Below, piece by piece: positions 1,345 to 48,125 of a DNA stretch of 64,000 nucleotides. Source of the stretch: Giardia intestinalis. Its lineage: Eukaryota. The stretch lies in NCBI GenBank assembly GCA_000002435.2, contig CM018793.1; one strand, 5' to 3'. The translations under genes were made by a program, and so were the position numbers. The notes under the pieces were generated by a model, which had not been told where the DNA came from, made no database searches, and saw only the letters and a program-made list of their open reading frames with translations. The stretch's first letter is position 1. Each line of letters opens with the position of its first letter.

Positions 1345-4300
1345 CTACTCTCCTACTGTGTGTCCTGGGCGTATGTGCCACTTTTTAAGCATTGAAATAA
1401 AGCGAGAGTTACCAATTTCAGAAGCCATGGATAGAGCTGTTTGTCCGCTACAGTTCCGCATTCCCAGCTCCTTATCTACTAACAGCAGCGCAGTTTCATA
1501 TGCATTATATTGCACACAGTACATGAGAGCGGTCATTCCTCGGTCATCTTTCATTCCACTCTCATGGGGGACAAGAGCTCTGGATAGTGCTGTATCTCCC
1601 AAGGCTATGGCGTGCATAAGGGCCGTTGCCCCCACGGCATCGCGGGCCCCACAGCCTAGAGGAATACATAATTGTGCAAATGGGAGTTTGTTGGCCTTGA
1701 TGGCATATATGAGAGACGAGTCGCAACCAGGACACCAGACGTTTGCCTCAAACGCTAGAATCTCAGCGCACTTGTAGTGTCCTGATTCTATGGCGACGAT
1801 GAGCCCGGTTTTTCCTTCCTTGGAGAGTATTTTGCCCTCGTGTGTAGATAGGTGCCTTACACCACCCACGTTCCCCACCTCCGCAGCAATCATAAGGGCT
1901 GTGATGCCTGTTTCTGTGACCGTCATTCCATATTCTTCAGAGAGAAGTGGGATGGAGGAGTTAAACGAGAGGAATGCGGCATACATCAAGGCAGTCCACC
2001 CTCTAGAGTCCTTATGACGCACTTGGTGTAAATGCTTTTTTACCTCGACTATGCTTTTCTTTTTGATAGAGTTGATTAGACCTAGCTCGCTATCACGGAG
2101 CATCGTGCTATGGGACATATTAAGTTGTGAAAGCTGCCTGACTGCATCGGGATCGTTTGCTGCAAATGGACCGGAAACAATAAGATTTGAAGAGGCTCCT
2201 AAACTGCTTTGATAACCAAAAAGGCCAGACGAGTGGGCTGATTGCCGAAGAACTTGTTGAGACGCCAAAGATGGAGATACTTGCCGAGAATTTCGCAAGA
2301 TCTGAGCGAGTCCTTTGTCATGTGTTGACCGAGCGCTTAGTGGCATTGCGCATACGCGCTCAATGCGAACCAGATCTTCCTTAGAAACGCAGTCTTTAAG
2401 CTTAGCCCAGTGGAGCTCTCCGAGTGCATCCCTAGCCGAGTCGATCAGATCAAGAGCCAGCTGTTTCATTCCCTTGCGCATAACATATTCTAGCGGAAAC
2501 ATGCCGTCTCTGCCTCTAATCATAAGTTCATACGGAGCCAGAAGCATCGCTATCTTAAGCATCCCCATTTCCAGAGCCACGGAGAGTGCAGTGGCCCCGT
2601 TCTTCTCACGCTTACCAGCATGCTCAGGTATAAGCTGAAGAATTTCTCTGGTAGGGTCATTATTCTTGACTGCGGCAATTAGAGGAGAACCTGTGTTTCG
2701 ATACAAAAGCTCTGGATGGCAAGACGTTGGTCTTTTCCGCTGCTTGATTGGTGTGCATTCGTTTGTCTCCTTTGTATCAGGCTGAGTCGTCGACAGTAAC
2801 AGAGTGCTTGCTACACTGGGAACAGCGTATTGATTAAATGTATCAACAGCAGACGCCTGCGAATTTAGAAGGATGCTCTGATTGCGTTGAAAGTCTTCCG
2901 CTAGAATAAGAATATTGACGATATCTCTGTTATTTAAACTTCGGGCTAAATCTATGGGAAGTAGATTTTGTGGACCGTGGATGCGGGATTCAAACCGAGC
3001 TAGAATGCGCACAAAGGATCGACGATTTAACCTTATAGCATGAGTTAGAGCGGTATTGGAAGAGGAATCGATGCAGCCACATTGAGACGGAGTGTACTTT
3101 TCAACACCACTTGGCAGATTATAAATCACGGATAGAATCAAACCTGTCTTCTTATCAGCGCCCACTAATAGCACCCCAGATGTTACTACGGCTTCTACTA
3201 GCTCTGTCATATTCTGGATGAGGGCGAACTCAAAGGCTTGAGTTGAAAGCAATATATTTGAGGTCAATTTCTGATGAAAAGCTTGTAGAGAAGACATGGT
3301 CTCTTCCAACTCCTTCACTAAAACAACAGCCTCATCAGATAGGAAAGCCTGCACTTGGTCGTTTTTATTTGTTACCTGCTTAATTCCCTCCGCAGAGTTG
3401 CATGCAGGGAGACTGTCATTAAGAGAAATATTAGAGACATCTAACGTTCCGCTTAAGCTACTATCCTCTCGAAGATTCTCTGCCTGACGATAGACCGGCT
3501 CAATCTTTTCGCTCCGAGAGAGAATTATGTGAGACTGAGGCCTGGGACGAGACGCTATAGAAGATAGGCTGGCAGAAGCAGTCTTTGCCTGCATATGCTG
3601 GGCTGCCGCGGTACGTAAAGTCTGAGTTCTATCAACACTACATGGAGCCTTTCTCATCATAGAAGTTCCTGACAAAGGTCTTCTGGTCCTTTCTGGAGTG
3701 ACGGCCGTCGGGATTAGCTTGTTAGCTTGAAAATACTCATACTCAAATATTCGTTGAACAGATCTCTGCAAGTCCCTAAATGACCGCAAAGATGTAATCC
3801 GCCGCAAGTAGAGAACTGTCTGCTCGAGCTCTGTGCTATACGTTCCATTAGGTACATATGCCATTGCATATGCCAGGATACTTCCCAGCTGGTTCGCGTC
3901 GTGGCAGGCGGAGACCGGTGCTTCTGGGTACATATCGTATCCTGTAGTGTGTTCCTTCCGAAATCTAAGTTGTCGAGCCATGGAGTGGATGTCACCGAAT
4001 GCGTAATCCGCGATCAAGATGGTGTCCCCAGTCACTGACGCCACAACATTTTCGAGAGAGAGGTGACCATGTATGTAGTGTCCCCCATTAATAGCCTCCA
4101 GAACAACAAGGCCTTCTATGATTCCTTTGCAGATCCTTCGCAGAAAGAGGTCTGGTGGCGCCTTCTGATGTGTCGCGGCCACTCGCAGAATATCTGCCAA
4201 AGAGCGGGAATTGTCGTACTTATACCCCAGCTTAATGGATCTCTGCGGTGACTCAGCATTATCTAGATGTATAACATCGTATGAGATAACTTGGGGCACT

Positions 4301-4458
4301 CTTATGGGAGCAATACTTCGCACCTGCTGGATGAACAGGGACACCATCTGCGGGGGCAAGTCTCGCAAAATAACGCGTCTAAAAATCTGCCGACTCTGTG
4401 TTGCTGCACTAGATGTTGCATAGATGCAGCTAATCCGGTCAGATGCGTACTCTTTCAT
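1345..4458 (-). CDS. NEK-like pseudokinase with C-terminal ankyrin ('TALM') repeats, a Giardia NEK/21.1-type architecture
   Basis: The ORF track starts at a GTG (4485); the first in-frame ATG is at 4458 (MKEYASD...). The N-terminus has a kinase-like fold with degenerate catalytic motifs: 'HGHLSLENV' in place of HRDLKPEN and 'ADYAFGD' in place of DFG. The C-terminal third holds repeated ankyrin units with the G(M/W/A)TALM signature (GWTALMYAAF, GITALMIAAEVG, GATALMHAIALG, GMTALMYCVQYN, GQTALSMASEIG). Stop TAG at 1345-1347. Confidence 0.6.
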   Translation of the reverse strand: MKEYASDRISCIYATSSAATQSRQIFRRVILRDLPPQMVSLFIQQVRSIAPIRVPQVISYDVIHLDNAESPQRSIKLGYKYDNSRSLADILRVAATHQKAPPDLFLRRICKGIIEGLVVLEAINGGHYIHGHLSLENVVASVTGDTILIADYAFGDIHSMARQLRFRKEHTTGYDMYPEAPVSACHDANQLGSILAYAMAYVPNGTYSTELEQTVLYLRRITSLRSFRDLQRSVQRIFEYEYFQANKLIPTAVTPERTRRPLSGTSMMRKAPCSVDRTQTLRTAAAQHMQAKTASASLSSIASRPRPQSHIILSRSEKIEPVYRQAENLREDSSLSGTLDVSNISLNDSLPACNSAEGIKQVTNKNDQVQAFLSDEAVVLVKELEETMSSLQAFHQKLTSNILLSTQAFEFALIQNMTELVEAVVTSGVLLVGADKKTGLILSVIYNLPSGVEKYTPSQCGCIDSSSNTALTHAIRLNRRSFVRILARFESRIHGPQNLLPIDLARSLNNRDIVNILILAEDFQRNQSILLNSQASAVDTFNQYAVPSVASTLLLSTTQPDTKETNECTPIKQRKRPTSCHPELLYRNTGSPLIAAVKNNDPTREILQLIPEHAGKREKNGATALSVALEMGMLKIAMLLAPYELMIRGRDGMFPLEYVMRKGMKQLALDLIDSARDALGELHWAKLKDCVSKEDLVRIERVCAMPLSARSTHDKGLAQILRNSRQVSPSLASQQVLRQSAHSSGLFGYQSSLGASSNLIVSGPFAANDPDAVRQLSQLNMSHSTMLRDSELGLINSIKKKSIVEVKKHLHQVRHKDSRGWTALMYAAFLSFNSSIPLLSEEYGMTVTETGITALMIAAEVGNVGGVRHLSTHEGKILSKEGKTGLIVAIESGHYKCAEILAFEANVWCPGCDSSLIYAIKANKLPFAQLCIPLGCGARDAVGATALMHAIALGDTALSRALVPHESGMKDDRGMTALMYCVQYNAYETALLLVDKELGMRNCSGQTALSMASEIGNSRFISMLKKWHIRPGHTVGE

Positions 4459-4584
4459 TTGGGAATTTTGGCGACAGATGACCACGTGGGAAATTTAAAC
4501 TGCGAAGATGCGCACGGACTAACAGATGTTCATGCAATTCTCTATACTGAGGTCATTTACATTAGAGTCGGTTAGCCCAAAAAG

Positions 4585-7245
4585 ATGTCTAATAGCAATC
4601 TTGATTCATATTTGCGTTCTGCTCGTCATGCGCCTGTGCTGCATTGTCCTTTTAGCATATATTCGGAGCTGCAGCACTTAAAAGACTCTAGCGATCTTCC
4701 CTCATTCCTTTTACGTCCGCTGAGCTATAGCTTATCCCGCTTTAACTTATTTAGAAGCGCAGGGTCCATCTCATTTTCAGCCGCACTAGCTCCTGCAGCT
4801 CCCCATGAACACTATGCATATCCGTGTCTTGCCTCACTGGTCCAATTTCTAGGCTACAGGCCAGAGGACTGTAATGCATCCGTGGAACTCGAAAAGCCTC
4901 TGCAAAATCATGATGTCTGCACATATATAGCTTCACCTGACGAGCTGGCGTGCGCTCTATCACTCCTCGGCACCCAACACACCCATCCACCTGATCTTGA
5001 GAGCGATACCACGAGCGACAGTGAAGAGCTGTCTGATGATCAACAATCGCCCAACAGGTCTCGCCCCAGAACTCACGTCGAGCTCCATTTGCAACACCTC
5101 CGGAGGTCAATTCCGCGTCCAAAATCAACTAAGCATGCAAATCTTTACTTACTTCGGGCATCATCTAGGCCTACTGTCTGTCCGAATATCATTCTCGTCG
5201 AAGACAGTGGGGGTGCTGGACTTGCTGCACTTTTTCGATCGATATGTCATCGGGTAAGTGACGTTTATAGCAATCTGCCTGTCCACAGTATCTTTTCAAC
5301 CGTTTATTCGACAAGTATTGGAGAAAAGCAGTGCTTAACAATGGCGCATAGAGGCTTGCAGATGCAATGTTGTAACGACGGTGCTACTAGTGACCTTGCT
5401 ACTGAACGTGTGCTCTTCACAGTCCAAGAATCAAAGAGAATCATGCGCTTATTCAATCGCAAAGAGCGCCAGAAAGACGGGACCTGGACAAAGAGACCCC
5501 GCAAACCCTTAGTATCTCCATCAGAGTCTATAACACAGGCTCTTTTGCGTGCCAAGGCTGCTGCTCAAACAAATAGCAAAGATGAAGATAAAGAGACATA
5601 CCAATTCTCCTCTTCTCTCTCCCCCTCTTCTTCTGAGTCCTCCCTTACTGCGCAACACAAACATAAAATTACATCCTATTTTAGCTATTTGTCAGGCTAC
5701 CCCACCCTTGCATGGCCCCCCGTAACAGTCATTGACTTTAGTCCCATTCAATACAACATCTCTACGTTTGATATGTGCAGCGAGATAAGCTTCAGCCTAG
5801 GTACGGTCCATAAGGAAGCAGGGACAAAGGCGGCTAAGCGGCCAATTCTCGTGGGCTATAGCAGACACCGCTTTAGCTACAGACGACAACTTTTTCGTGC
5901 GCAACTTTTTTATCATATGCTATCTAATTCCTCAAGCTACAAATTGGAAAGTGACAAGTATTACTATAATAGTCTAAATGATTGCATGGACCTACACGTA
6001 GAACAGGCAGTAGTTGAGAAGAGAAAAGGCCAGTTTCGTCCATTATCGGTTCAGGAAGTGCTCTGCGGGATAACTGGAGAGAGTAGATCCCTGGATGAAG
6101 TGGTGCAAAAGATCAGCGAGCCTGCTGATATCATCCCTCCCAAAAAAGTACCAGAGACGAAAAGAACCCAGAAGAAAAATGCAAAATCTAGTAGCAAGCA
6201 TTCTATCTTAGATCAAATGGTAAAGGTATCTCAGAAGCCATCAGAGGCAATAGACTGTGAGGTCGGCGAACCACTAAGAAAGCAGCTACCTTCATCCACC
6301 GTCCTAGACGCAGACTCTTTTATTAAGCTATTTAACAAAACATCAGACAGTAACATAAGCTCAATGCAGCACCTCGGAAGGGACGCACCTGTGCCGACCT
6401 TCATTAACGGTCGAGGCCGGGCGCAACATGAATACTCGCTCATTAATGAGTACTCAGCAGATGATCGGGAGGACATCTCTTTTATTAGTGTGCCGTTGTG
6501 TGAGATTGCTCCATTTAATTGTAGCCACTTATTTATGCTCAAAGATGTGGCTTCAGACATAGCCAAGTATAAAGCGCTTGCTTGTGAGGCACTTGTCTTA
6601 GCATGCTATGACACCGCCAGCTGGCAGGCGTCTAAGCATACGCTATCTCTGCGTCCAGACATACGCCAGCTTTCCAACCTTATACACTTTTGGGGAGATG
6701 CAGCGAGTATGCCCCTGGTGGCTAAGCGAAAACAGGGTGCTGCCTGGCCAGATCACACGTATGCAGACGTTATAGAAATATGTTCGTCTCTTTGTGGCGG
6801 GTTCCTCATTCTGTCGGGGTCATCTCACTTGTCACTGCATCAAGCATCTACTGGGCAGGCTAGTTGCACGATTGAAATAAGTCATATCGTGAATAGTGAA
6901 AGGATTCAGTCAGCCGTTCGCTATGTTCTGTTGTCGCAGAAAGGGTCTCGAAAGCGATACAGAGTAGACTTTGTACCGGAGACGTGTCCAGCACTTCCCG
7001 TAACAGAGAAGTACATATCGTATCTGGAACGTGCAGATCATCAAGATACCATACAATACAATATATCACTCAACATGGACCAGAAAGGCATATGGGGTGA
7101 TATTCTGTTGGCTAGTGGCGAGATCATGACCAGAAGAATGGTAGACATGGTACACATGGCGCTCCCGATGGTCGACTACGGGGCACCAAGCAGCGTACTT
7201 CAAGGTTTGAATGTCTTAAAAAAATGGTCTTATTTGTTGCTTTGA
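4585..7245 (+). CDS. hypothetical protein (886 aa); no family recognised
   Basis: Long uninterrupted ORF with ATG at 4585, divergent from the 4458 gene with a 126-bp spacer. Codon usage matches the neighbouring genes. The antisense ORFs are short. Confidence 0.45.
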   Translation: MSNSNLDSYLRSARHAPVLHCPFSIYSELQHLKDSSDLPSFLLRPLSYSLSRFNLFRSAGSISFSAALAPAAPHEHYAYPCLASLVQFLGYRPEDCNASVELEKPLQNHDVCTYIASPDELACALSLLGTQHTHPPDLESDTTSDSEELSDDQQSPNRSRPRTHVELHLQHLRRSIPRPKSTKHANLYLLRASSRPTVCPNIILVEDSGGAGLAALFRSICHRVSDVYSNLPVHSIFSTVYSTSIGEKQCLTMAHRGLQMQCCNDGATSDLATERVLFTVQESKRIMRLFNRKERQKDGTWTKRPRKPLVSPSESITQALLRAKAAAQTNSKDEDKETYQFSSSLSPSSSESSLTAQHKHKITSYFSYLSGYPTLAWPPVTVIDFSPIQYNISTFDMCSEISFSLGTVHKEAGTKAAKRPILVGYSRHRFSYRRQLFRAQLFYHMLSNSSSYKLESDKYYYNSLNDCMDLHVEQAVVEKRKGQFRPLSVQEVLCGITGESRSLDEVVQKISEPADIIPPKKVPETKRTQKKNAKSSSKHSILDQMVKVSQKPSEAIDCEVGEPLRKQLPSSTVLDADSFIKLFNKTSDSNISSMQHLGRDAPVPTFINGRGRAQHEYSLINEYSADDREDISFISVPLCEIAPFNCSHLFMLKDVASDIAKYKALACEALVLACYDTASWQASKHTLSLRPDIRQLSNLIHFWGDAASMPLVAKRKQGAAWPDHTYADVIEICSSLCGGFLILSGSSHLSLHQASTGQASCTIEISHIVNSERIQSAVRYVLLSQKGSRKRYRVDFVPETCPALPVTEKYISYLERADHQDTIQYNISLNMDQKGIWGDILLASGEIMTRRMVDMVHMALPMVDYGAPSSVLQGLNVLKKWSYLLL

Positions 7246-10711: not shown

Positions 10712-11422
10712 TTAAGCGAGGACCACCTTGATCGAGGTCTGGACTGTTGGCACATCGATAACGGTGAGAGTTTCGTGCAGGGCGACTGTCTGTGGAAAGG
10801 AGATGCGCGAGAGACTCGACACAAGGTGTGGGTATTGGGTTTTGGTGTACTGTGTGCTTATGTGAAGTTCTTTGAGGACGTCAGTGAGCAGAGGAAGGAC
10901 CTGAGTGCATGCCCTCTTGCTTCCAAACCACACCTCTATCGTGCAGAACTCCTTCTCTAGCTTCAAGCAGCAGCCGTTGATTCCAAGCTTGGTCTTGTCT
11001 GTGGAGGCCGAGGAGTGCTCCAAAGCTCCAGTCAAAAGCAGTGTGCAGATAAAATTCCAGAGAGAATCTAGATCCGTGGGATCGACAATTGGATGTAACT
11101 TGTTAGACGCTTGATAGACCGCCTGGACTGCTTGCACCGATAGGCAACAGCGAAACCTGACGATCGATCCGCCGGCATTCATGGGATCTTCCCACAGGCA
11201 CTCTATTTGGTCTCTGAACAGTGAAATATGACCCTGCCTCAACTTTGAAATGGACGGAATGCTGTGCAAGGAAGATATAATTTCATCTAGATCAGTTGAA
11301 TCCACGCAAATCCTGCTATTCTGCTGGCTGAACGGTATCGGCAGGCTGTGCTTGGAGTAGAAACGCAAGGGCACCCAAAAGGCAACGCTCCACGAGGAGA
11401 GTAGCTCTCCCGTTGCCCCCAT
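10712..11422 (-). CDS. hypothetical protein (about 236 aa)
   Basis: The ORF track begins at a GTG (11491) and overlaps the ARL gene. The first ATG (MGATGELL...) is at 11422 and is preceded on the coding strand by 'gggtcaaaaaATG'. Confidence 0.35.
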   Translation of the reverse strand: MGATGELLSSWSVAFWVPLRFYSKHSLPIPFSQQNSRICVDSTDLDEIISSLHSIPSISKLRQGHISLFRDQIECLWEDPMNAGGSIVRFRCCLSVQAVQAVYQASNKLHPIVDPTDLDSLWNFICTLLLTGALEHSSASTDKTKLGINGCCLKLEKEFCTIEVWFGSKRACTQVLPLLTDVLKELHISTQYTKTQYPHLVSSLSRISFPQTVALHETLTVIDVPTVQTSIKVVLA

Positions 11423-11463
11423 TTTTTGACCCACTCGTTTTAAAACAAAAAGGCAACACGGAT

Positions 11464-11970
11464 TCAAGGCTGCTTTGGCACATCGAGCCACTGCGCAATT
11501 TTGTCACAGCCTTGGCCGTCCAGCCCACAAAACATAAAAACCTCTTGGACGCGGTCTTTGTCCAGTTGTAAAGTGGTCCTGTAATAATCGGCCTTTTGCG
11601 ACACCCCAGGCTGGTCTATTTTCGTTACTACCACTGCAAAACGGGAAGCACGCATGTCCGTGTGCCCCAATATGTCCTTTATCAGATCCCGCGCTTGATC
11701 GAGCGGGCTTGTCCCGTCGACCACAAAGAGGCACGTTTGCGTGCCTGAGTAGTGCTCACTCCACAGCTGCATCATCTCAGCCGAGCCACCCACGTCTATA
11801 ACTTCATATCTATTGTATTTCTCTGCAGTGAAGTTGATTGTGGGATTGACAACAGTAAACGAGTTGGTTTTTAGGTAATTGATCAGGGTGGATTTCCCAG
11901 AGAACTGCCGGCCCAGAATCAATAACTTGGCTGTTTTATGGCGAGCGGGTCTGGAGCTGGCTGCACCCAT
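11464..11970 (-). CDS. ARF-like (ARL) small GTPase
   Basis: N-terminal MGxxxS (Gly2, a candidate myristoylation site). P-loop 'GRQFSGKST', switch II 'IDVGGSA' (DxGG), and 'TKID' (NKxD-like). AT-rich initiator on the minus strand ('cttaaaaaattataaaatattATG'). Confidence 0.7.
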   Translation of the reverse strand: MGAASSRPARHKTAKLLILGRQFSGKSTLINYLKTNSFTVVNPTINFTAEKYNRYEVIDVGGSAEMMQLWSEHYSGTQTCLFVVDGTSPLDQARDLIKDILGHTDMRASRFAVVVTKIDQPGVSQKADYYRTTLQLDKDRVQEVFMFCGLDGQGCDKIAQWLDVPKQP

Positions 11971-22720: not shown

Positions 22721-22883
22721 TATTTTAACAAGTGCTCGTCACACGTGGGCGCTCTAGATTTACAATAATCACACAGAAAATCTAATGGTCTTCTTGTCAA
22801 GCCTTTACTAAGGTTTATGGCAGTGTATAGACAGAAAAATAATACAACGCAAGTGAAGGCCCGAGCTGCTGCCTACGCTGCCT

Positions 22884-23492
22884 ATGGCCTCATGGAAGCA
22901 CAACCAAATAGGCTCGTCCGATTTTATCTTTGCCGAGATTGACTGTATGGGGGTCTCCATCATTGTCACCGAGCTGCCCACCGTGTCTTCGCTTCCGCTC
23001 CATTTGCAAGTTTATGATTTTCTCAACGTCACAGCCTTAGTCACATTTGGCCCAGCTAGCTACAGCATGGCACCTATCAGGAATCGTGGCTTGAGCGTCA
23101 CGATGTTTGACTATTCATCTTCAACAGCGCTCACACACAACGCCCTGGCTGAGTGGCAAAGCTTTATGCAGAGGAAAATTCTGGATGCACACTCCTCTCC
23201 CAGACGTGAGCTGATTTGCATATTGGACGATACAGCCGGTGTCAAGACGATCATTCTCTTCTCTCTACTAATGTATCACTGGGGGTGCTCTTTGGAACAT
23301 GCGCTGCAACGTGGCCGAGAGTACTTGCCTCGAGTTGTCCTCACGTCTGAAGAGGAGATCTTTCTGTGCAAGCAAATCTTAGCTACCAAGCAAATATCAC
23401 GTACCAAACGGTTCCTTTTCCTCTTTCGACGGTATGTGCTGCAACTGAGGCTTTGTAAGCGGCGTAAAGAGTATAGTGCTACTCTTCTTTAG
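22884..23492 (+). CDS. dual-specificity-phosphatase-fold protein with a mutated catalytic loop (probable pseudophosphatase)
   Basis: A DUSP-like alignment runs across roughly 120 aa: 'FLNVTALVTF' matches the GITAVLNVS region, and 'LAEWQSFMQRKI' matches the aA helix. 'RELICILDDTAGVKTIILFSLLMY' lies where VxVHCxAGxSRSxTxxxAYLM is expected, so the Cys nucleophile is Asp and the Arg is Lys. The start context is not AT-rich, so the start is uncertain. Confidence 0.4.
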   Translation: MASWKHNQIGSSDFIFAEIDCMGVSIIVTELPTVSSLPLHLQVYDFLNVTALVTFGPASYSMAPIRNRGLSVTMFDYSSSTALTHNALAEWQSFMQRKILDAHSSPRRELICILDDTAGVKTIILFSLLMYHWGCSLEHALQRGREYLPRVVLTSEEEIFLCKQILATKQISRTKRFLFLFRRYVLQLRLCKRRKEYSATLL

Positions 23493-23506: not shown

Positions 23507-23827
23507 ATGGCCGTGGCCTCTCCTCTTTTAGAGCAGTTCCTGATGGTCAACTCTGGTAATTTTCAATACAACATCGTTGACAAAGGTGTAGACGGTGATA
23601 TGCTCTTTTACAAAGTTGCATTTTTCCTCATGGACCCCAAGGAGCCCATCCCAGAGGCAATCATTTTTACCTTTTATGAAGGCTCTAGCAATGGAGAAAG
23701 CAACCTTCTGTTTGTTCCCGAAAATTATCACTACAAATGTGACACGCGGTGCATCGCCGAAGGGAAGTTTTCTGCCCTTTTGATGTCACGCTTCAACCAG
23801 AAGTTGCGGGCCAAAGGCCTTACTTAG
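23507..23827 (+). CDS. small hypothetical protein (106 aa)
   Basis: Carries a canonical Giardia initiator, 'agatcaagaaaaaacaATGgcc'. The ORF lies between two confidently called genes. No family recognised. Confidence 0.35.
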   Translation: MAVASPLLEQFLMVNSGNFQYNIVDKGVDGDMLFYKVAFFLMDPKEPIPEAIIFTFYEGSSNGESNLLFVPENYHYKCDTRCIAEGKFSALLMSRFNQKLRAKGLT

Positions 23828-32889: not shown

Positions 32890-34875
32890 TCAAGAAAGGC
32901 GTCTCTGCGTCAAAACGCCGCGAGGGATTGAGATTGAATGATGAACTGACTGTGCAGATGAGGTCCTGCCATGGCTATTGACGGGACTATTGCTTCGCAC
33001 GTGCTGACATGTACGGTTTATTTGACGAAGCTTTTCAATGCAGCGAGTAACAGAGTCTGCATACTTTAAGGATGCAAACCCCTTGGGGTTCCACTTAGCA
33101 GATTCATATTTCTCATTATAATCTTCCTGGAGTCTTGCCGGGGAAGGATACGAAAAGTGCCGTACGTTTTCCTTGATTATAGAAAAGGCAGAATGCGATC
33201 GTTGTGCAGCACGCTCATCCGGCATATTACGCAAGTCTGTTAAGTTCTGCATTTCTCGGAGCTCTTTAATGGTGCAAAATTCGTCAAACTTCGACAAGGA
33301 TGCTTCCATCTGTGCGGCCAGAACATCCTCATCTCCATCTATAGGAGTGCTGATTCTGGCAACATCAGTAGTGGCCAGACGCTGTGCTCTAGCAGGCTCC
33401 TCACTGCGGGGAGAGCTTGGAGTCGCTGAGAAAGCACGTCTCTTGTCAACAGCTGAATCGGTAGGAAGTGCACATCTTCTATTATAGCGCTCTGGAGAGA
33501 TGTTACTGTAAAGAATGTAGCCCCGCGACGGAGAAATAGGCTCATCAACCAATCTGCTAGATTGCACTTTATTGGCGTGCCTATCCATTGACCTATCGTT
33601 TGAGGCTTCTGGCTCCATGATCCTGATACTGTTTCGGGCAGAAGAATGGGAAGAAGAGTTAATCCGTGGCTTAGCGTCATTGCTATCATCCCCAACTGTT
33701 CTAACAACACTTTCAGTAAGAGGAAGGCTCCGCAAGATGTTAAAGAGGTACTCCAGCGAACATTCATCAATACTCCCAGACCATGATAGCTTGCAAAGAA
33801 GCTGCTTCAACTCGTCACAAGTTTCAACCCTAAAAAGAAGCTTTCTAGCTATATCGCTGGGCACGTACAGTTCCCTTTTCAAATCATCCGACAAAATATC
33901 TTTGAAACAGGGATTACGGAGGAGTTGAGATGCTCTAGGTCGAGCGGCTGGGTTTATGGTCAGCATGGCCTCCACCAGCTTAACTAACTCAGAGGATCTC
34001 CCCGGCAAGCATATGCCGAAACGATTTTCTCCCGAAAAGTATGCCTTTTGGACATCGGTATTGGGGAAAAGGCGCTCCGTAGTGGCCATCTCATAAACAA
34101 CGCATCCAAGAGCCCAGATATCATTCTCCACCCCAGCTACAGAATAGTACGCTTCAGGAGCCCTGTATCCTGGCGCTCCAGCAAAGCCCGACTCCTCTGT
34201 GTTAGTAACGTAGTCAAGGGTAATGTTCTTCAACTGCCTCAGCTCCTCTTCATCAAACTGTGCCGCCATAGTAAAGTCTGCTAGCTTGATGTTATTATCG
34301 TAGTCCAACAAGATGTTATCTGGCTTGATGTCACGGTGGGGTATGGGGAAGTGAATACGTGCACTGTCCACGGTACCCTGATCATCTTCTGTGTTGCCAG
34401 ATTTGTCGTCTATGCAGCTTGGCCGTCTACTGGTCGATCTGGAAAGTAATTCAGGGATTTTGTACCATGCTTCTGTCGATGGATCGTGCAGATAATGCAG
34501 AGCACTGAGAAGTTGGTACGTGTACTTCCATATGTCTGCCTCAGGAATGGGTTCCCTGCGTCTGCGGTGGCTCTGAATAAGCTTCTTGAGAGAGTATTTC
34601 ATGAGAGGCATAATAATATTGATTGTTTGCAGCCTGCTGTCAATGACGACTTCCCGTACGGGGAGGATGTATGGGTGATGGAATCCCTGCATTAGGTAGC
34701 CCTCCCTAGACATCCCATAGTACTCCTTGCTGTCTCGGTCAATATCGCCATAATAGATAATTTTGACCACCAACTCCTCTCCAGTCGCCCTATCCATGCA
34801 ATGGTGTATCTTTGCCTGTGTTCCCATGCCAATCATTGCCGCTACGTCATACTTTAAGGCGATTTTGCTCTGCAT
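32890..34875 (-). CDS. atypical Ser/Thr protein kinase (DFG replaced by DFT; large insert before the catalytic loop)
   Basis: The ORF track starts at a TTG (34890); the ATG is at 34875 (MQSKIALKYDVAAMIGMGTQAKI...VVKI). Catalytic loop 'HRDIKPDNILLD'. 'KLADFTMA' stands in place of DFG. 'APGYRAPE' is present. A hydrophilic insert of about 45 aa lies between 'LHYLH' and HRD. The C-terminal 300 aa are S-rich and low-complexity. Confidence 0.6.
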   Translation of the reverse strand: MQSKIALKYDVAAMIGMGTQAKIHHCMDRATGEELVVKIIYYGDIDRDSKEYYGMSREGYLMQGFHHPYILPVREVVIDSRLQTINIIMPLMKYSLKKLIQSHRRRREPIPEADIWKYTYQLLSALHYLHDPSTEAWYKIPELLSRSTSRRPSCIDDKSGNTEDDQGTVDSARIHFPIPHRDIKPDNILLDYDNNIKLADFTMAAQFDEEELRQLKNITLDYVTNTEESGFAGAPGYRAPEAYYSVAGVENDIWALGCVVYEMATTERLFPNTDVQKAYFSGENRFGICLPGRSSELVKLVEAMLTINPAARPRASQLLRNPCFKDILSDDLKRELYVPSDIARKLLFRVETCDELKQLLCKLSWSGSIDECSLEYLFNILRSLPLTESVVRTVGDDSNDAKPRINSSSHSSARNSIRIMEPEASNDRSMDRHANKVQSSRLVDEPISPSRGYILYSNISPERYNRRCALPTDSAVDKRRAFSATPSSPRSEEPARAQRLATTDVARISTPIDGDEDVLAAQMEASLSKFDEFCTIKELREMQNLTDLRNMPDERAAQRSHSAFSIIKENVRHFSYPSPARLQEDYNEKYESAKWNPKGFASLKYADSVTRCIEKLRQINRTCQHVRSNSPVNSHGRTSSAQSVHHSISIPRGVLTQRRLS

Positions 34876-34972
34876 TGGCTTCTGTTGCAACTTTTTTACC
34901 CTTTGATTTACTGACTTTCGTTGTAAGCGCCCAAAAGACTTGTCGCCCAGGCTGATACTTCCCTTTGACGAA

Positions 34973-40312: not shown

Positions 40313-43069
40313 ATGAGCAGACCTGGCTTGTATATAGGGCAAGTTATTTACAACTACCGAGTCTTAGAAAAGATTGGTACGGGGAGGTTTGGGACTGTCT
40401 ATCGCGTCCAGAGAGTGGGTACAAACAAGCTTTTTGCACTGAAATACATAGACCTCAAAATGAGCACAGAGAAAGCCAGAAGGCTGCACATGCGCGAACT
40501 ACAGTTACTGCCGTATCTTAAGCATCGCAACGTCATAAACTGCTGTGAGGCACACTTAGACAACAATATGACCGCGTATTTGTTCATGGAGCTTGCAATT
40601 AGCGATTTGAGTAGCCTCTCTAGGACGTGTGCAGCGGCCTATGCACCTGATTATGAACAGCATATCTGCAGAATCATTGCTGACGTAGCTTCTGGGCTGC
40701 ACTACCTCCACACCTATCATACCATGGAAGCTGTCTGTGGACAACCAATCGCTGGGCCCACACCAACAAAGATAGTTCACCGCGACATCAAGCCCGAGAA
40801 CCTCCTTCAGATGGCCGACGGCACAGTGAAGATAGCCGATTTTGGAATCATTGGGCAGTTGAATGTAGAGGAGATGCTCTCCACAGGAGTCGGCACAATC
40901 CGGAACTGTGCGCCAGAGATCTTCAAGCTTCTCAAGTACACAGAGAAGATAGATATATGGGCTCTGGGATGCGCCATTTATCGGTTTTGTCATGGGACTG
41001 ATATCTTTAGTCAGCCCCAAAAGGCCACTACGCTGTCAAGGGTGCGGGAAAGCATGCTTCAGCAACATTCTGCCCTGGCCGACGGAAGAATAGCCTTTGA
41101 GTTTCGCGGTTTTTCTCAAGAGCTATGCAATTTAGTGAAGAGCATGTTTGCCATAGATCCCAGCCAGCGTCCCAGTGCCTATGAGATTCTTTGTCATCCT
41201 CTTATTAACAGGTGGGTGTACAGAGAACGCTATCTGGACTATAACATCCACAATGACATCCCAGCAATCGCCGGTTATCACGACTTTCATTTAATTGAAT
41301 GTACACATAACAGCAATATCTATAAAGCAGTATCTAGTCACACAAGGCAGCCTGTGGTGGTAAAGCGGATTCAATTAGAAGACTCTGGGCATGCTCGCTA
41401 TTTGCAAGATGTTGAACTGCAAATTAGTAGAGAGATCGCCAAAGGGACGTGGAACAATCTTCTTGGTACCATATTGGATGTAATAGATCCGATAGAAGTG
41501 CATCCTGGGTGCCAAGAGGCATACATAGTTATGGAATACTATGAGCGGGGAGACTTGAACGAATACTGCAGAGTAGCAAATATAACAAACGAGCAACTGG
41601 CAGAAGATTATATTTTAGTGATTATGGCTTCCATTCTGGAAGCCTTGGCATTTCTTCATACACCGAACGCTGCACTTAATAAGCCTGCTATTATTCATAA
41701 AGACGTTAAGCCAGGTAACATCCTCTTGACCTCATTTGGTAGCGTGGTACTCATTGACTTTGGATCCGCCACCGAATTGGAAGGCGACTTTCATGAGAGA
41801 GACGACTTCATTACAGGCTCATTGATGTACATGGCACCAGAGTTGTTGCGAGGAGAAAGATATAACGAAAAGGTTGATATCTGGTCTCTCGGAATGACTG
41901 CCTTGTTCCTTTGCGAAAGCCACTATCTAGTTGTTGGATCTACGGCCGGCGCAATACTAAGTAGCATAGAGAGTATATTTCGTAGTGACTATAGGATACC
42001 AAGTAGATATAGTGATGGGCTTAACTCCTTGATCATGATGATGCTCCAATGTGATGTGCAGGAACGACCCTCGGCGCAGGCTCTGTTGAAGCACCCTCTG
42101 ATTGCCGCTAACAGACCAAACTCTTCAGTGGACAGACACGGGAAGTGTCCAGTGATTCGTGCCATCGAAGCTCGTAAGGAAATAACACACTCCTTAGCGA
42201 CACGCTATCCAGACACAGTGGATTCCTCAGGGATGTTTGCCTTAGCGCATGCTGCAAAGTACTGGGACTCAGCCGCCATTCGCATCCTATTGGATATCCA
42301 GAAGAAGATGGTGACACTTCACAAGCAATTCACACCCCTAATGGTATTTCTCTTATCATTACAACTATCTCGTGAGAAAGATGTGGTGAGCAATCTCGAA
42401 AAGATTGAGGAGTGCTTTGAACTTTTAGTACCCTCATTTGCTCGACTTCAAGATGCAACGGGGTATACAGCCCTCATGTGGACTATCCGTCTATATACGC
42501 AGATTAAAGAATCCGGCACACCAGAATCAACTACCTGCGAGGTGCTTCTGAAGTTTATTCCGCGGCTTATCCAAATGGAGCAAGGGGTGGTTCGATCGAC
42601 TGGAGGCACGGCTCTCATGTTAGCCGCGGAGCTGGGATGTCTCGAGGCCGTTGAAGAGTTTGTCCGTATGAACGCAGAGCTCGGCATGCAGAAGCCCAAT
42701 GGAGTCACGGCGCTAATGATTGCAATCAGAAAAGGGCATAACAGCATCGTCAATCTTTTGGTTGAGCGGGAGCACTCACACACAGTAACTGATCCTCCAG
42801 GGTTCACCGCCCTCATGCTCGCTGTGTTGGCCCAGAACACTAAGGCGGTGGAGCGCCTACTGGCATTCGAGGCACAGAGGGCAACAAACGACGGGGTGAC
42901 CGCATTGATGATCGCCGCGGAGATAGGCAAGTCGGAAATACTCGATCTTTTAGCTCCAGCAGAATACGGCCTACTAGACAAAAACCACAATACAGCCGTG
43001 GACTATGCGTGTAGTAATGAAGTGGGGATTTATCTACAGAGATATGCCAAGGGTGATAGTAACCTATAG
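40313..43069 (+). CDS. NEK-family protein with tandem kinase domains (the second degenerate) and C-terminal ankyrin 'TALM' repeats
   Basis: Domain 1 has GTGRFGTV, ALKYI, HRDIKPENLL, DFGI and APE, so it looks catalytically competent. Domain 2, at about aa 320-600, has VVVKRI, 'IHKDVKPGNILL' (HRD replaced by HKD, no Gly loop), DFGSA and MAPELL. The C-terminal 300 aa carry five or more ankyrin units (GYTALMWTI, GGTALMLAAELG, GVTALMIAIRKG, GFTALMLAVLAQ, GVTALMIAAEIG). Confidence 0.7.
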   Translation: MSRPGLYIGQVIYNYRVLEKIGTGRFGTVYRVQRVGTNKLFALKYIDLKMSTEKARRLHMRELQLLPYLKHRNVINCCEAHLDNNMTAYLFMELAISDLSSLSRTCAAAYAPDYEQHICRIIADVASGLHYLHTYHTMEAVCGQPIAGPTPTKIVHRDIKPENLLQMADGTVKIADFGIIGQLNVEEMLSTGVGTIRNCAPEIFKLLKYTEKIDIWALGCAIYRFCHGTDIFSQPQKATTLSRVRESMLQQHSALADGRIAFEFRGFSQELCNLVKSMFAIDPSQRPSAYEILCHPLINRWVYRERYLDYNIHNDIPAIAGYHDFHLIECTHNSNIYKAVSSHTRQPVVVKRIQLEDSGHARYLQDVELQISREIAKGTWNNLLGTILDVIDPIEVHPGCQEAYIVMEYYERGDLNEYCRVANITNEQLAEDYILVIMASILEALAFLHTPNAALNKPAIIHKDVKPGNILLTSFGSVVLIDFGSATELEGDFHERDDFITGSLMYMAPELLRGERYNEKVDIWSLGMTALFLCESHYLVVGSTAGAILSSIESIFRSDYRIPSRYSDGLNSLIMMMLQCDVQERPSAQALLKHPLIAANRPNSSVDRHGKCPVIRAIEARKEITHSLATRYPDTVDSSGMFALAHAAKYWDSAAIRILLDIQKKMVTLHKQFTPLMVFLLSLQLSREKDVVSNLEKIEECFELLVPSFARLQDATGYTALMWTIRLYTQIKESGTPESTTCEVLLKFIPRLIQMEQGVVRSTGGTALMLAAELGCLEAVEEFVRMNAELGMQKPNGVTALMIAIRKGHNSIVNLLVEREHSHTVTDPPGFTALMLAVLAQNTKAVERLLAFEAQRATNDGVTALMIAAEIGKSEILDLLAPAEYGLLDKNHNTAVDYACSNEVGIYLQRYAKGDSNL

Positions 43070-43111: not shown

Positions 43112-45205
43112 CTAGATAGGGGTGGAGTAGAAGTTCCTTATAACTGAGATAACATGCTCAAGCTCTCTTAGCGTGCTATCATAGAGAGCAAGATCAGTTT
43201 GCAACACCGTGAGCTGAGAGTCATTAGTTTCGATTAGAGTGTCAACAGATACGTCTATGGCCGAGTTAAACGACTCGCCTTGCAAGAGATAAGGGGCCAT
43301 GCTTTTGTAAAGCGCGGAAAGCTTATTAGATATCAACGAGGAAAATACATTGGGTGCCATCACTTCCCGTTGCTTCAGCAGAGTATGCGTATCTACAACC
43401 CACCCATCCAGCTGGGCCACCTTGATGCCCTGCACAATCCCTGTACCTCTATCGAGCTTGAGATGTGGGTTAGCGGTACCGCCGAGCTTTGTGACTCCAG
43501 AAGGTGTCAGGTATGCGTCTGTCATGTGGTCATTGATGATCCTTTTTGAGAATATCGATTTGAGGCTCTCTTGATAGCCGTCAATACGTGCCAAAAACGA
43601 GTCCAAAGCATCAAAAACTTGATTCTGGACCTCCCAATTCCTTGAGAGACAGGTTTTAGTGAACATGGATGTGAAAAAGTGTCTTTTGGAGTGATTTAGA
43701 AGCTTAAATAATTCATACACGGATTGGATGCAGTCAACAGAATCCCTCAATTGATGTGAGTACAGTCCTGGTAAGATATCATCACTGTGGGCCACATGAG
43801 AAATCACTTTTCGGTGTCGGTGCTCCTCTGTCACCATTCTCTCTGAGACAGAGTCCTGACTCAAGGGGATTGTTGCACCTGTTCTTATTATTTCCTTAAG
43901 GCGCATCAGCACTGCACTACTAGAAGACCCCTGCTCAAGCTCTCTGATTGCCAAAGAGTGCGCATACATGTCTCTGAAAGATGTAATCGCAGACAAGGAT
44001 GAATAGGTGTCTAGGGAAGCATGAATATCACTGAAAACTTTCCATATCCCATCCAGCTTTTCAGTGAGTAATTGCCTGTGCTCTTCTCTACCAGAACTCG
44101 TTACAGTAGCCTCTATTTTCTTGTTGGTTCGCTGAATAGTATCAGTAAGGTATTCTATCTGTTGCAATTGGTTTTCTGTTTTCTGTCTAAGTGTGTTTGT
44201 TTTGTTCATAGCTGATACTAGCTCGTCAACAAGGCGCTTTGTTCGACGACCGCAATTCTCAAGCTCTCTGCTGTGGTCCTGCAAAAACGAACTGCACCGT
44301 TGTAACCCGAAAACCTCTGCCTTCAGGAGAACTGCGCCTAGCTGTGGTGTCTTTGTCATCAAATGCTTAATAACCTGAGATGTGATGTTTTCTGGGGCCA
44401 GTTCAAAAGACTCATTACAATAGGTTAGCAAAAGGTCGTTTTCACGCATGCGCAGCAGATCTAGCTCAGCTAGTATTGCTTCTCCCTCCTTAATGTTACG
44501 GAGCGTTGCCTTGTACACGAATCCTAAGCGCGGATGAGTATCTGGGTAGGTCTCATTAGACTCTTCAAAGACCTCTTCATCGTCTCGAAGAAATACCTTA
44601 AGTTGGTGAATCGCTGACTCTATCTCACTCTTGAGTTGACGGAGGAGGGTGGCAAGCCGATGCTTGGTGCTCATGGTGAACTGTCGTGTAGCCTGCTCCT
44701 GTGCAGACAAAAGGTCACGCTCAGAAGTTGCTGTCTCAGATAAATTGGTAGAATCAACCAGAGCCGACCCACATGCGCCTCGAAAAGCGTTCAAGGATTG
44801 CACAATTCCATCTAAAGCCTCATTGACCCTTGTTAGATGGACAATTTTAGTTAGTTGGTTTCGTGTGCTTTCTTCGCTCTTTGCATATGTATCTGTGTCC
44901 ACAAGTACAGACTGCACTAGCTCAAGGAGTTTGGATGGCTGCTCTCCGACTGACATTTGAGTAGACGCGTTCGTGGCAGCAATCTTTTGCTTTTGGAGCT
45001 CCATGATGCGGAAAATCTTTCGAATGCGTGTATACTCGCCCGGGCTAACAGTGTGACGCATCAGCTCTTCCTGAAAGCTCTCATTTGATGCTGAAAGGCA
45101 ATCAAAGTTCTTGGGATGCGGCCGTAGCCTTTCGTCATGCGGAGCATAGCCGAGATCCTTCGTCAGCCAAGTATGAAACTTGATGGATGCCGGTGTGGCA
45201 CACAT
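43112..45205 (-). CDS. hypothetical protein (697 aa); partly coiled-coil
   Basis: ATG at 45205 (plus-strand 'cat' at 45203-45205) with 'ttttaattccacaccaaATG' on the coding strand. Convergent with the kinase gene across a 42-bp gap. Confidence 0.4.
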   Translation of the reverse strand: MCATPASIKFHTWLTKDLGYAPHDERLRPHPKNFDCLSASNESFQEELMRHTVSPGEYTRIRKIFRIMELQKQKIAATNASTQMSVGEQPSKLLELVQSVLVDTDTYAKSEESTRNQLTKIVHLTRVNEALDGIVQSLNAFRGACGSALVDSTNLSETATSERDLLSAQEQATRQFTMSTKHRLATLLRQLKSEIESAIHQLKVFLRDDEEVFEESNETYPDTHPRLGFVYKATLRNIKEGEAILAELDLLRMRENDLLLTYCNESFELAPENITSQVIKHLMTKTPQLGAVLLKAEVFGLQRCSSFLQDHSRELENCGRRTKRLVDELVSAMNKTNTLRQKTENQLQQIEYLTDTIQRTNKKIEATVTSSGREEHRQLLTEKLDGIWKVFSDIHASLDTYSSLSAITSFRDMYAHSLAIRELEQGSSSSAVLMRLKEIIRTGATIPLSQDSVSERMVTEEHRHRKVISHVAHSDDILPGLYSHQLRDSVDCIQSVYELFKLLNHSKRHFFTSMFTKTCLSRNWEVQNQVFDALDSFLARIDGYQESLKSIFSKRIINDHMTDAYLTPSGVTKLGGTANPHLKLDRGTGIVQGIKVAQLDGWVVDTHTLLKQREVMAPNVFSSLISNKLSALYKSMAPYLLQGESFNSAIDVSVDTLIETNDSQLTVLQTDLALYDSTLRELEHVISVIRNFYSTPI

Positions 45206-45234
45206 TTGGTGTGGAATTAAAAAGTATTCCTTTA

Positions 45235-46713
45235 ATGAATGTTGAGCCTAGCAGGGCCTCAACTGCTTCATATGTGCGTCTAGTAAAACTATATACCCGT
45301 AGCCTTGAAAGGTGTGCCAAAATAGGAAGTATGTTTCCATCTGCTACGATAGTTTCTATGTGCCTGAAATGTGCTAAAATACTCGAAACTCTCAAATTAT
45401 CACATTCCGGACATACACCGGCTTCTTTTTGTGAGGCCCACACGGTGGACGATGCCTGCGGTGTCCAAGATTCATATGCAGTTGCCAGGCCTTTATATGA
45501 TTTTCTATTCAAGTTGTTAGAGATTGCATCTCAGGTGAGCGATAGTGAACATGCAAGAATGCAATTGAAGGGTATATTAGATAACAGGGAAAACAGATCA
45601 GCATCAGAAATTAGAGACAATCTGCAGCGTATATTATCCTTACCTCAACAGCCATGTGCGCCTCCTACAGAGGCGATATGCATTGCATTATTGGCTACTA
45701 AAGATATCAATCAAATGGCTTTTCAAATTGAACAGAATTTCGATCAACAAATGGCAGACCTCTATACACTGATGCGCGCCGGCAAGGCCACCTCTACTGA
45801 GGTTGAGGACTTTCTTAATGGAGAACGCAACCACTCTAATTTCCGGTTTTATATACTTTTATGCACGTACATAAGCACGGCGGGATTGACTGTCAAAATC
45901 AATCAACGAACCGGGACTTTGGTGCAGTGGAAGACCGCCCTGATTGATGCAGCAATCAATAATGACCCCGAACAGGTATACGCGCACCACGACAAGCTAT
46001 TTCAACAGAGCCAAGAGTGGATAGATCTGGCTGCCAATGGGGGGTCACACAAAGATCATGTCAAGCTGTCGTCTTTCAATTTAACTGCCTTGATGGCCGC
46101 TGCGTGGTATGGTCACATCGAGTGTGTAAAGCTTCTCTTGGCGGAAATGGGCCTGCAGGACAAGCTGGGGTATACCGCGCTAATGATGGCTGCACAGAAT
46201 GGAAGCGTAGACGCAGCCCTACTCCTTCTGGCAGAGGCAGGGTTTTCTGATGAGTCTGGGTTTACGGCACTGATGGCTGCTGCCTCCAACGGGCACACAG
46301 AGATTGTAGCTATGCTGGCAAGCAGGGAGTCTCGCATGCAAAACAAGGATGGGTCGACCGCCCTAATGCTAGCAACATCCAGGAACAATATCGACGCAGC
46401 ACGGATTCTTGCAGAATATGAGGCAGGGATGTGTGATAACGACGGCATGACTGCTCTGATGATAGCATCTGCTAATGGCTGTCTCCAAATTGTCGGGCTC
46501 TTATACCCAAAAGAAATAGGGCATCGTGACAAGTCTGGCTGGACAGCAATGATATGGGCTGCCCAGCGATGTGCATATTGGTGTATGAAGCTCCTTCTCC
46601 CTTATGAAGGAGAGATCAAGGATAACACGGGAAAGAGCCCAATGGATCATGTAATATGTTCCTCTCATGGAAAGCCTTTAGACAAACAACGGTGTCTTTT
46701 TCTTCTCGTCTAA
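45235..46713 (+). CDS. ankyrin-repeat protein of the Giardia 'protein 21.1' type
   Basis: The ATG at 45235 (MNVEPS...) carries the initiator 'ggaattaaaaagtattcctttaATG'. The upstream ATG at 45187 would overlap the divergent gene. Six or more ankyrin units carry TALM: LTALMAAAWYGH, GYTALMMAAQNGS, GFTALMAAASNGH, GSTALMLATS, GMTALMIASANG, GWTAMIWAAQ. Confidence 0.65.
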   Translation: MNVEPSRASTASYVRLVKLYTRSLERCAKIGSMFPSATIVSMCLKCAKILETLKLSHSGHTPASFCEAHTVDDACGVQDSYAVARPLYDFLFKLLEIASQVSDSEHARMQLKGILDNRENRSASEIRDNLQRILSLPQQPCAPPTEAICIALLATKDINQMAFQIEQNFDQQMADLYTLMRAGKATSTEVEDFLNGERNHSNFRFYILLCTYISTAGLTVKINQRTGTLVQWKTALIDAAINNDPEQVYAHHDKLFQQSQEWIDLAANGGSHKDHVKLSSFNLTALMAAAWYGHIECVKLLLAEMGLQDKLGYTALMMAAQNGSVDAALLLLAEAGFSDESGFTALMAAASNGHTEIVAMLASRESRMQNKDGSTALMLATSRNNIDAARILAEYEAGMCDNDGMTALMIASANGCLQIVGLLYPKEIGHRDKSGWTAMIWAAQRCAYWCMKLLLPYEGEIKDNTGKSPMDHVICSSHGKPLDKQRCLFLLV

Positions 46714-48097: not shown

Positions 48098-48125
48098 GGA
48101 CGCCTCTGAATTAAAAAACTGCGGC

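Follow-up and report, generated by a model that had tools for sequence, protein, structure and literature searches.

What does a protein do that is predicted to fold as a phosphatase and lacks the residues that phosphatase chemistry needs? This question is raised by GL50803_19189, a gene within a 64,000-nucleotide stretch of the Giardia intestinalis genome (contig CM018793.1; hereafter, the window). Its open reading frame (ORF) at 22884..23492 on the plus strand is uninterrupted, with 202 codons and a TAG stop, in the ORF list and in the sequence. The 202-residue product, which includes ICILDDTAGVKTIIL, is an exact match to XP_037902330.1 / KAE8305749.1 (GL50803_0019189, UniProt D3KH43) of G. 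intestinalis WB, and databases annotate it as "hypothetical protein" only. A first-pass annotation of the window had described it as a dual-specificity phosphatase (DUSP) fold that had lost the catalytic Cys and Arg. We consider it likely that GL50803_19189 encodes a lineage-restricted, catalytically dead, PRL-like pseudophosphatase that works by binding.

Fold and nearest family

Domain libraries do not recognize this protein. Pfam and NCBIfam searches with HMMER gave zero matches at E <= 10 for GL50803_19189 and all six members of its Giardia family, and no protein tyrosine phosphatase (PTP) clan family was found; canonical PRLs match PF00782, PF22785, and PF00102, whereas the Giardia family matches none of them. 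The first-pass annotation had named the PF00782/DSPc profile as the check on its assignment, and in this HMMER form the check came out negative in the six family members. The homology is visible only by profile-profile and structure comparison.

Profile-profile alignment did retrieve a significant match to the PTP fold. When the six-sequence Giardia family was compared to a 25-sequence PRL profile, hhalign gave a probability of 94.6 % and an E-value of 6.5e-8, and the alignment spanned 127 columns (residues 17-148). Sequence searches pointed to the same family. The family profile run against all PDB sequences (HMMER) matched PRLs and, beyond them, only a few PTPs of archaeal or ancestral type. 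The top PDB match was 6wur_A, with the single sequence (phmmer, E 0.0023) as well as with the family profile (E 1.3e-4), and at E <= 1 the searches of PDB sequences yielded no MKP, VHR, STYX, DUSP, or CDC14. Among 1.84 billion representative proteins, the HMMER profile retrieved one true match outside the family: a canonical PRL (P0031, E 6e-4) that carries VHCVAGLGRAP and a CAAX box. Another candidate from this search was rejected as a repeat-driven artefact, P0030 (6,458 residues with Lys/Leu/Glu-rich repeats, E 2.6e-30), whose score summed 26 matches to a 30-residue helix (residues 73-102).

At the structural level, an AlphaFold2 model for which only Giardia sequences were used reached a predicted local distance difference test (pLDDT) value of 70-86 in the core. 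Foldseek with this Giardia-only model ranked PRL-3, PRL-2, and PRL-1 highest (E about 1e-7; template modeling (TM) score 0.73-0.78 on the target), the best match being PRL-3 (E 1.1e-7, TM 0.77), while MKP-type DUSPs (MKP5) appeared only at E about 2e-4. A second model, with PRLs in its input alignment, also gave a confident fold prediction. The predicted structure presents the central-sheet alpha/beta architecture of the PTP/DSP (CC1) fold with its strand, P-loop, and helix element. Identity to PRLs is 15-23 %, and the fold-marker residues P32, Y60, W91, A118-G119, G134, A140, and R/K145 are kept at positions that are invariant in 25 diverse PRLs.

On these profiles and models, we regard the predicted PTP/DSP fold of GL50803_19189 as secure, and sequence, profile, and structure all place the protein closest to PRL/PTP4A. 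Of the likeness to DUSPs proposed over about 120 residues, the fold was supported by hhalign and Foldseek, and the 15-residue alignment through the strand, P-loop, and helix was structurally sensible; the nearest family is PRL/PTP4A and not the MKP-type DUSPs. Taken broadly, the dual-specificity class includes PRLs, and PRL-like is the more precise label.

The extent of the homology also bears on the start of the protein. An in-frame TGA at 22854-22856 lies upstream and sets M1 at 22884 in this strain. Some gene callers use M22 instead; this start is too short, since the phosphatase homology detected by hhalign already begins at residue 17.

The remodeled active site and its conservation

PTP chemistry needs a thiolate nucleophile, an Arg that clamps the phosphate and stabilizes the transition state, and a general-acid Asp. 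All 120 canonical PRLs in our set carried H-C-[VI]-A-G-[LI]-G-R-A-P, the DG of the acid loop, and a Cys at position -4, with Cys49 scorable in only 103 of the 120. In GL50803_19189, the DNA at 23214-23249 reads ATT TGC ATA TTG GAC GAT ACA GCC GGT GTC AAG ACG, encoding I-C-I-L-D-D-T-A-G-V-K-T. Where the catalytic signature is H-C-X5-R, we found L-D-D-T-A-G-V-K, with Asp for Cys and Lys for Arg in 29 of 29 sequences.

Which of the two Asp residues takes the Cys position depends on the alignment. By hhalign and MAFFT the PRL Cys falls on D116, with a loop shorter by one residue and D115 at the position of the P-loop His. In the ungapped register used in the first-pass annotation, D115 replaces the Cys, giving D-X5-K, and Leu stands for the His. 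Since the two gaps introduced by hhalign cancel out, the ungapped register is equally possible, and the DSSP boundaries of the two models (in the second, strand 109-114, loop 115-119, helix from 120) are compatible with either. The aligned reading of Asp for Cys and Lys for Arg is robust to this choice, because D115 and D116 are both invariant Asp and K121 takes the position of the P-loop Arg in every alignment. The two substitutions that the first-pass annotation had reported were borne out in both registers.

The replacements are not confined to the P-loop. When 25 diverse PRLs were aligned to the six Giardia family members, the PFxDG of the PRL acid loop faced Y-S/P-S-S, so that S79 stands against an Asp and S80 against a Gly in 25 of 25 PRLs. 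At the second, disulfide-forming Cys we found Gly56 in six of six Giardia sequences vs. Cys in all 25 PRLs. At residue 122, which corresponds to the Ala after the P-loop Arg of PRLs, three lineages have Thr and two have Ala, a difference that is meaningless without the Cys and the Arg. The C-termini (...SATLL, ...FRRCE, ...FRRRY, and ...GFFR) present no CAAX farnesylation box, which is a defining PRL feature (PMC8728433). In these alignments, every catalytic or PRL-regulatory residue is replaced, in the acid loop, at Cys49, and at the CAAX box as well as in the P-loop. As the thiolate, the clamping Arg, and the general-acid Asp are all gone, we infer that Cys-based phosphoryl transfer would be impossible for this protein.

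The remodeled loop is fixed. Independent assemblies from NCBI, ENA, and Logan yielded 29 distinct sequences, every one of which has ICILDD[T/A]AGVK. They come from at least five lineages and include WB, DH, GS, an assemblage B isolate, one lineage at 87 % identity, and two at 63-66 % identity. The last two, from runs ERR3333378-82, probably represent dog assemblages C and D in PMC6939161, the link between runs and project being our own deduction. The first-pass annotation had asked whether the Cys codon could be a sequencing error; the 29 independent-assembly sequences share the loop, and none showed an intact Cys-X5-Arg. Between lineages, the codons of D115, D116, A118, G119, and K121 changed synonymously.

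At the level of the whole gene, the pairwise ratio of nonsynonymous to synonymous divergence (dN/dS) among five lineages was 0.06-0.14, with a near-saturated dS of 0.6-2.2. In the two loops that would line the pocket, 18 of 23 residues are invariant compared with 53 % of the whole protein (hypergeometric P = 0.007), and the acid-loop equivalent F75-T84 keeps 8 of its 10 residues invariant within the Giardia family. The alpha3 helix and the C-terminal tail are freely variable. Both the intact ORF and the synteny are kept in four other lineages, where the order is an 857-residue gene, a 988-989-residue SPRY gene (minus strand), GL50803_19189, a 106-residue gene, an RPA1-like gene (minus strand), and a VSP gene. 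From these comparisons, the gene is under strong purifying selection, with the pocket loops among its most conserved segments.

We detected GL50803_19189 in the G. intestinalis species complex only. The HMMER profile search of the 1.84 billion representatives found no orthologue outside the complex and no named G. muris or Spironucleus match.

Proposed binding role and alternative readings

A pocket that has been remodeled and is still under strong constraint suggests a surface that remains functional. In the PRL-like pseudophosphatase that we favor, this pocket would serve as a docking surface for a partner, and the negative charge at its base would be retained, as in the engineered PRL C104D. 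Precedent for such a mode exists within the family. PRLs act largely as pseudophosphatases via their catalytic pocket, and the engineered PRL-3 C104D, PRL-1 C104D, and PRL-2 C101D are inactive, 8-10 degrees C more stable, and still bind their partners, since they preserve the negative charge. The first-pass annotation had considered a catalytically dead pseudophosphatase the most likely case, and the fixed substitutions together with the purifying selection agree with it. Its further proposal of a phospho-binding or scaffold module holds in part: with two invariant Asp residues and no bidentate Arg, phospho-binding is less credible here than in a STYX-type module, while a binding or scaffold role is what we infer from the pocket.

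The C-terminal tail may contribute to localization. Residues 166-202 have a net charge of +10 vs. -4 for the rest of the protein and a helical hydrophobic moment of 0.4-0.5, and a helix is predicted at 173-198 with low pLDDT. The tail differs in sequence by lineage, and in every case basic residues together with aromatic or aliphatic ones close it. PRLs associate with membranes through a polybasic stretch and a farnesyl group. In GL50803_19189, the +10 amphipathic helix probably provides association with a membrane or an acidic surface in place of the prenyl anchor, and judging by composition it could be a substitute for that anchor.

Several observations weigh against this interpretation. A dead active site is no proof that the pocket is a functional surface. 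The register of the Cys position may be D115 or D116. The enrichment of invariant residues in the pocket loops is modest, with P of about 0.06-0.07 for single loops, and the beta1-beta2 region is conserved as much as they are. The second model leans to PRL because PRLs stood in its alignment. The membrane role of the tail was read from composition alone, in a segment that is poorly conserved. Finally, a literature search on the gene identifiers found no paper naming GL50803_19189.

A more specific version of binding, which we hold to be possible but unlikely, is a counterpart of the pseudophosphatase mode of PRLs, in which the Asp pocket would receive an acidic loop from a Mg2+ transporter of the CNNM/CorC type (DUF21 plus CBS-pair), or from an equivalent partner, and so regulate ion homeostasis. 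Giardia would then have fixed, in the course of evolution, the Cys-to-Asp separation-of-function mutation that experimenters introduced into human PRLs. All methods place PRL nearest, the best PDB sequence match is PRL-2 C101D in complex with CNNM3, and C104D holds CNNM binding whereas C104E, C104S, and C104A weaken it. The pocket loops being among the most constrained segments fits as well, as does the lack of a small canonical PRL in a Pfam-based survey of Giardia. On the other side, the P-loop Arg that is reported indispensable for holding the CNNM Asp is Lys in GL50803_19189, the acid loop bordering the pocket is wholly different, and no CAAX box is present. The alignment after residue 148 is unreliable and leaves no assignable counterpart of R138, the identity to PRLs is low, as given above, and the literature offered nothing on a Giardia CNNM, nor anything relevant on a Giardia pseudophosphatase, PRL, DUF21, or magnesium transporter.

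The survey in question, a Pfam-based analysis of the Giardia proteome from 2008, lists four PTP-superfamily proteins. By our own reading of its row order, three of the four are in the DSP cluster and Q7QWV9 (610 residues) is in the CDC14/PRL/DUSP23 cluster, with no PRL-sized member. We found no recent paralogue of GL50803_19189 in the protein collections searched, and a PRL-seeded database search, which covered no complete Giardia proteome or genome, had no Giardia protein among the best 120 of 2,543 matches. The survey table suggests that Giardia may be without a canonical PRL. It is conceivable, if rather doubtful, that GL50803_19189 descends from an ancestral PRL in an organism that has no canonical PRL left, evolution having fixed the Cys-to-Asp change that experimenters made. 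If it still docked a CNNM-type or other transporter through its Asp-lined pocket, it would be natural proof that the conserved, selectable function of the PRL lineage is non-catalytic binding of partners, and transporter docking would offer a way into the Mg2+ homeostasis of a minimal eukaryote.

Less probable still is a STYX-like module that binds phospho-residues and docks on phosphoproteins such as MAPKs, shielding or sequestering them. A binder of STYX type keeps its P-loop Arg, and its pocket is neutral or basic; GL50803_19189 has Lys for this Arg, and the two invariant Asp residues of its loop would repel a phosphate dianion. The searches go in the same direction: MKP/DUSP structures rank far below PRLs in Foldseek (E about 2e-4 vs. 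1e-7), the PDB sequence searches brought no DUSP, MKP, or STYX match at the E-value limit given above, and Pfam DSPc had no match.

We give very little credence to an enzyme with non-Cys chemistry, in which Asp would be the nucleophile or general base and K121 with the Ser/Thr-rich loop would bind a substrate, possibly a non-protein one. In its favor, invariant D-D, K, and S-S-T residues are clustered at the former active site, under direct selection. PTP1B C215D reportedly retains trace activity, and Asp-based phosphatases occur in other folds (HAD, EYA). Against it, PRL C104D and C104E are inactive, the transition-state Arg and the general-acid Asp are both missing, and we know of no precedent for an efficient Asp nucleophile in the PTP fold. 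The first-pass annotation had likewise placed Asp-based chemistry behind a dead pseudophosphatase, and the missing Arg and acid Asp and the inactive C104D uphold that ranking. A HAD-like reading of 'LDDT' was rejected: the motif is D-D-T-A and not D-x-D-x-[T/V], the fold is that of PTPs, and no HAD protein was among the top structures.

A spurious or dying gene (one that stems from a wrongly called ORF or from a sequencing error in the Cys codon, or a pseudogene drifting once its function was lost), to which the absent Pfam and NCBIfam matches, the 'hypothetical protein' label, and the silence of the literature might have pointed, is so improbable that we regard it as excluded, because the loop is identical in 29 independent-assembly sequences with synonymous codon differences, dN/dS is low against a near-saturated dS, and the ORF is intact with conserved synteny in five lineages and a confident fold prediction.

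The preferred reading, a PRL-like pseudophosphatase, supplies a "hypothetical" Giardia protein, invisible to domain libraries, with a fold and a hypothesis that can be tested, and it adds a PRL-like member to the small list of PTP-superfamily proteins of the 2008 survey. It would also provide a natural Cys-to-Asp case in a PRL-type pocket, kept by purifying selection, which bears on the debate on whether PRLs are enzymes or pseudophosphatases. At the practical level, GL50803_19189 could be a lineage marker, being restricted to the G. intestinalis complex with no host orthologue at useful identity.

Features of the window and comparison with known systems

Coordinates of GL50803_19189, its parts, and other genes of the window are collected in Table 1.

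Table 1. GL50803_19189 and other features of the 64,000-nucleotide window
Feature	Position	Strand	Basis or remark
Complete coding sequence, PRL-like pseudophosphatase (probable) GL50803_19189	22884..23492	+	ORF, exact protein match, dN/dS
Predicted PTP/DSP-fold domain, residues about 15-170 (beta1 to alpha6 equivalent)	22926..23393	+	
Gly56 at the PRL regulatory second Cys position (Cys49 of PRL-1/3)	23049..23051	+	Alignment
General-acid (WPD-type) loop equivalent, F75-T84 'FDYSSSTALT'	23106..23135	+	Alignment; S79-S80 for PRL Asp-Gly
Strand and P-loop equivalent, E109-T122 'ELICILDDTAGVKT'	23208..23249	+	Alignments, model
P-loop residues D115; D116; K121	23226-23228; 23229-23231; 23244-23246	+	
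Basic amphipathic C-terminal tail, residues 166-202	23379..23489	+	Charge, hydrophobic moment, model
Out-of-frame upstream ORF, about 41 codons	22816-22941	+	ATG at 22816
106-residue ORF	23507-23827	+	Starts 14 nucleotides past the GL50803_19189 stop
SPRY neighbor, 988-989 residues	19754-22720	-	SPRY-like segment at residues 760-845, 25.5 vs. 26.3 bits Pfam cutoff
VSP-family Cys-rich protein, 944 residues	25753-28587	+	PF03302, E 1.9e-56
Histidine acid phosphatase, 400 residues	7224-8426	+	His_Phos_2, E 6.5e-69
886-residue ORF	4585-7245		Overlaps the histidine acid phosphatase ORF by 22 nucleotides
eIF4E-like ORF	10712-11491	-	GTG start as listed
Arf-family GTPase ORF, 168 residues	11464-11970	-	Overlaps the eIF4E-like ORF by 28 nucleotides
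Dynein heavy-chain motor region	54244-64000	-	AAA1-AAA6, stalk, C-terminal domain
Cluster of Giardia expansions	40313-43069 (+); 32890-34890 (-); 1345-4485 (-); 45187-46713 (+); 48084-49337 (+)		Kinases and ankyrin-repeat proteins

Around the start of GL50803_19189, the out-of-frame upstream ORF overlaps the first codons. A 908-bp Logan contig encodes a 224-residue protein (P0012) in which that upstream frame is fused to GL50803_19189 at 'GVSIIVTE'; the fusion implies a 1-nucleotide indel, and an error of assembly or sequencing is its probable source. In assemblage B, the orthologues have in-frame upstream ATGs that give 207 or 213 residues.

Among the immediate neighbors, the 106-residue ORF is found at the same position in all lineages examined (106-107 residues) and had no Pfam and no PDB sequence match at E <= 10. 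The SPRY neighbor lies upstream, is divergently oriented, is syntenic in all lineages, and carries no annotation apart from its SPRY-like segment; the VSP-family protein lies two genes downstream at a conserved position. For none of these neighbors (SPRY protein, 106-residue ORF, RPA1-like protein, VSP) did we find a functional link to GL50803_19189.

Elsewhere in the window, the eIF4E-like gene probably begins at an ATG downstream of the listed GTG. The listed dynein ORF starts at an internal ATG (63780); its frame stays open as far as the right edge of the window, and the gene thus extends beyond it. The cluster of typical Giardia expansions comprises a NEK-like kinase that has C-terminal ankyrin repeats and two stretches of kinase domain, another kinase that is matched only over the C-terminal half of the kinase profile, and three '21.1'-type proteins with ankyrin repeats.

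Pseudophosphatases form an established category and pseudoenzymes abound in Giardia, so a PTP-fold pseudophosphatase does not overturn existing knowledge. GL50803_19189 lacks features of PRLs proper (CAAX, Cys49, and the CX5R of the CX5R-Ala motif) and a Pfam DSPc match, and it is best filed as a PRL-like pseudophosphatase. With PRL/PTP4A (human PRL-1/2/3, Drosophila PRL-1, and Leishmania PRL 3s4o) it shares a single-domain fold of roughly 150 residues, the same order of strands and helices, and a basic C-terminal extension. It differs from them in having no catalytic Cys, His, or Arg, no acid-loop Asp-Gly, no Cys49, and no CAAX box, and in an insertion of roughly 14 residues between the alpha5 and alpha6 equivalents.

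The engineered PRL-1 C104D (6wus) and PRL-2 C101D (6wur), like PRL-3 C104D, share with it a PRL-type pocket that has Asp at the nucleophile position. Those mutants keep Arg110, the acid loop, R138, and CAAX, which serve CNNM binding and the membrane; in the Giardia protein these are changed or lost, and for this reason a retained CNNM-type binding cannot be assumed.

Among STYX and MK-STYX type pseudophosphatases, little more than one residue (Gly for Cys) separates STYX from an active DUSP, and a single back-mutation can reactivate it, whereas in the Giardia protein four or more positions of catalytic or regulatory function are lost and PRL is a closer relation than the MKP-type DUSPs. Moreover, STYX-type proteins have the Cys substituted and the P-loop Arg and phosphate-binding cradle kept, while in Giardia the Arg is Lys and the loop holds two acidic residues. 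Classical DSPs (PF00782; MKPs, VHR) share the superfamily fold, and the Giardia protein has neither a PF00782 match nor HCX5R. KAP/CDKN3, CDC14, DUSP23/VHZ, and PIR1 are active HCX5R enzymes, none of which was found for the Giardia protein by sequence or profile.
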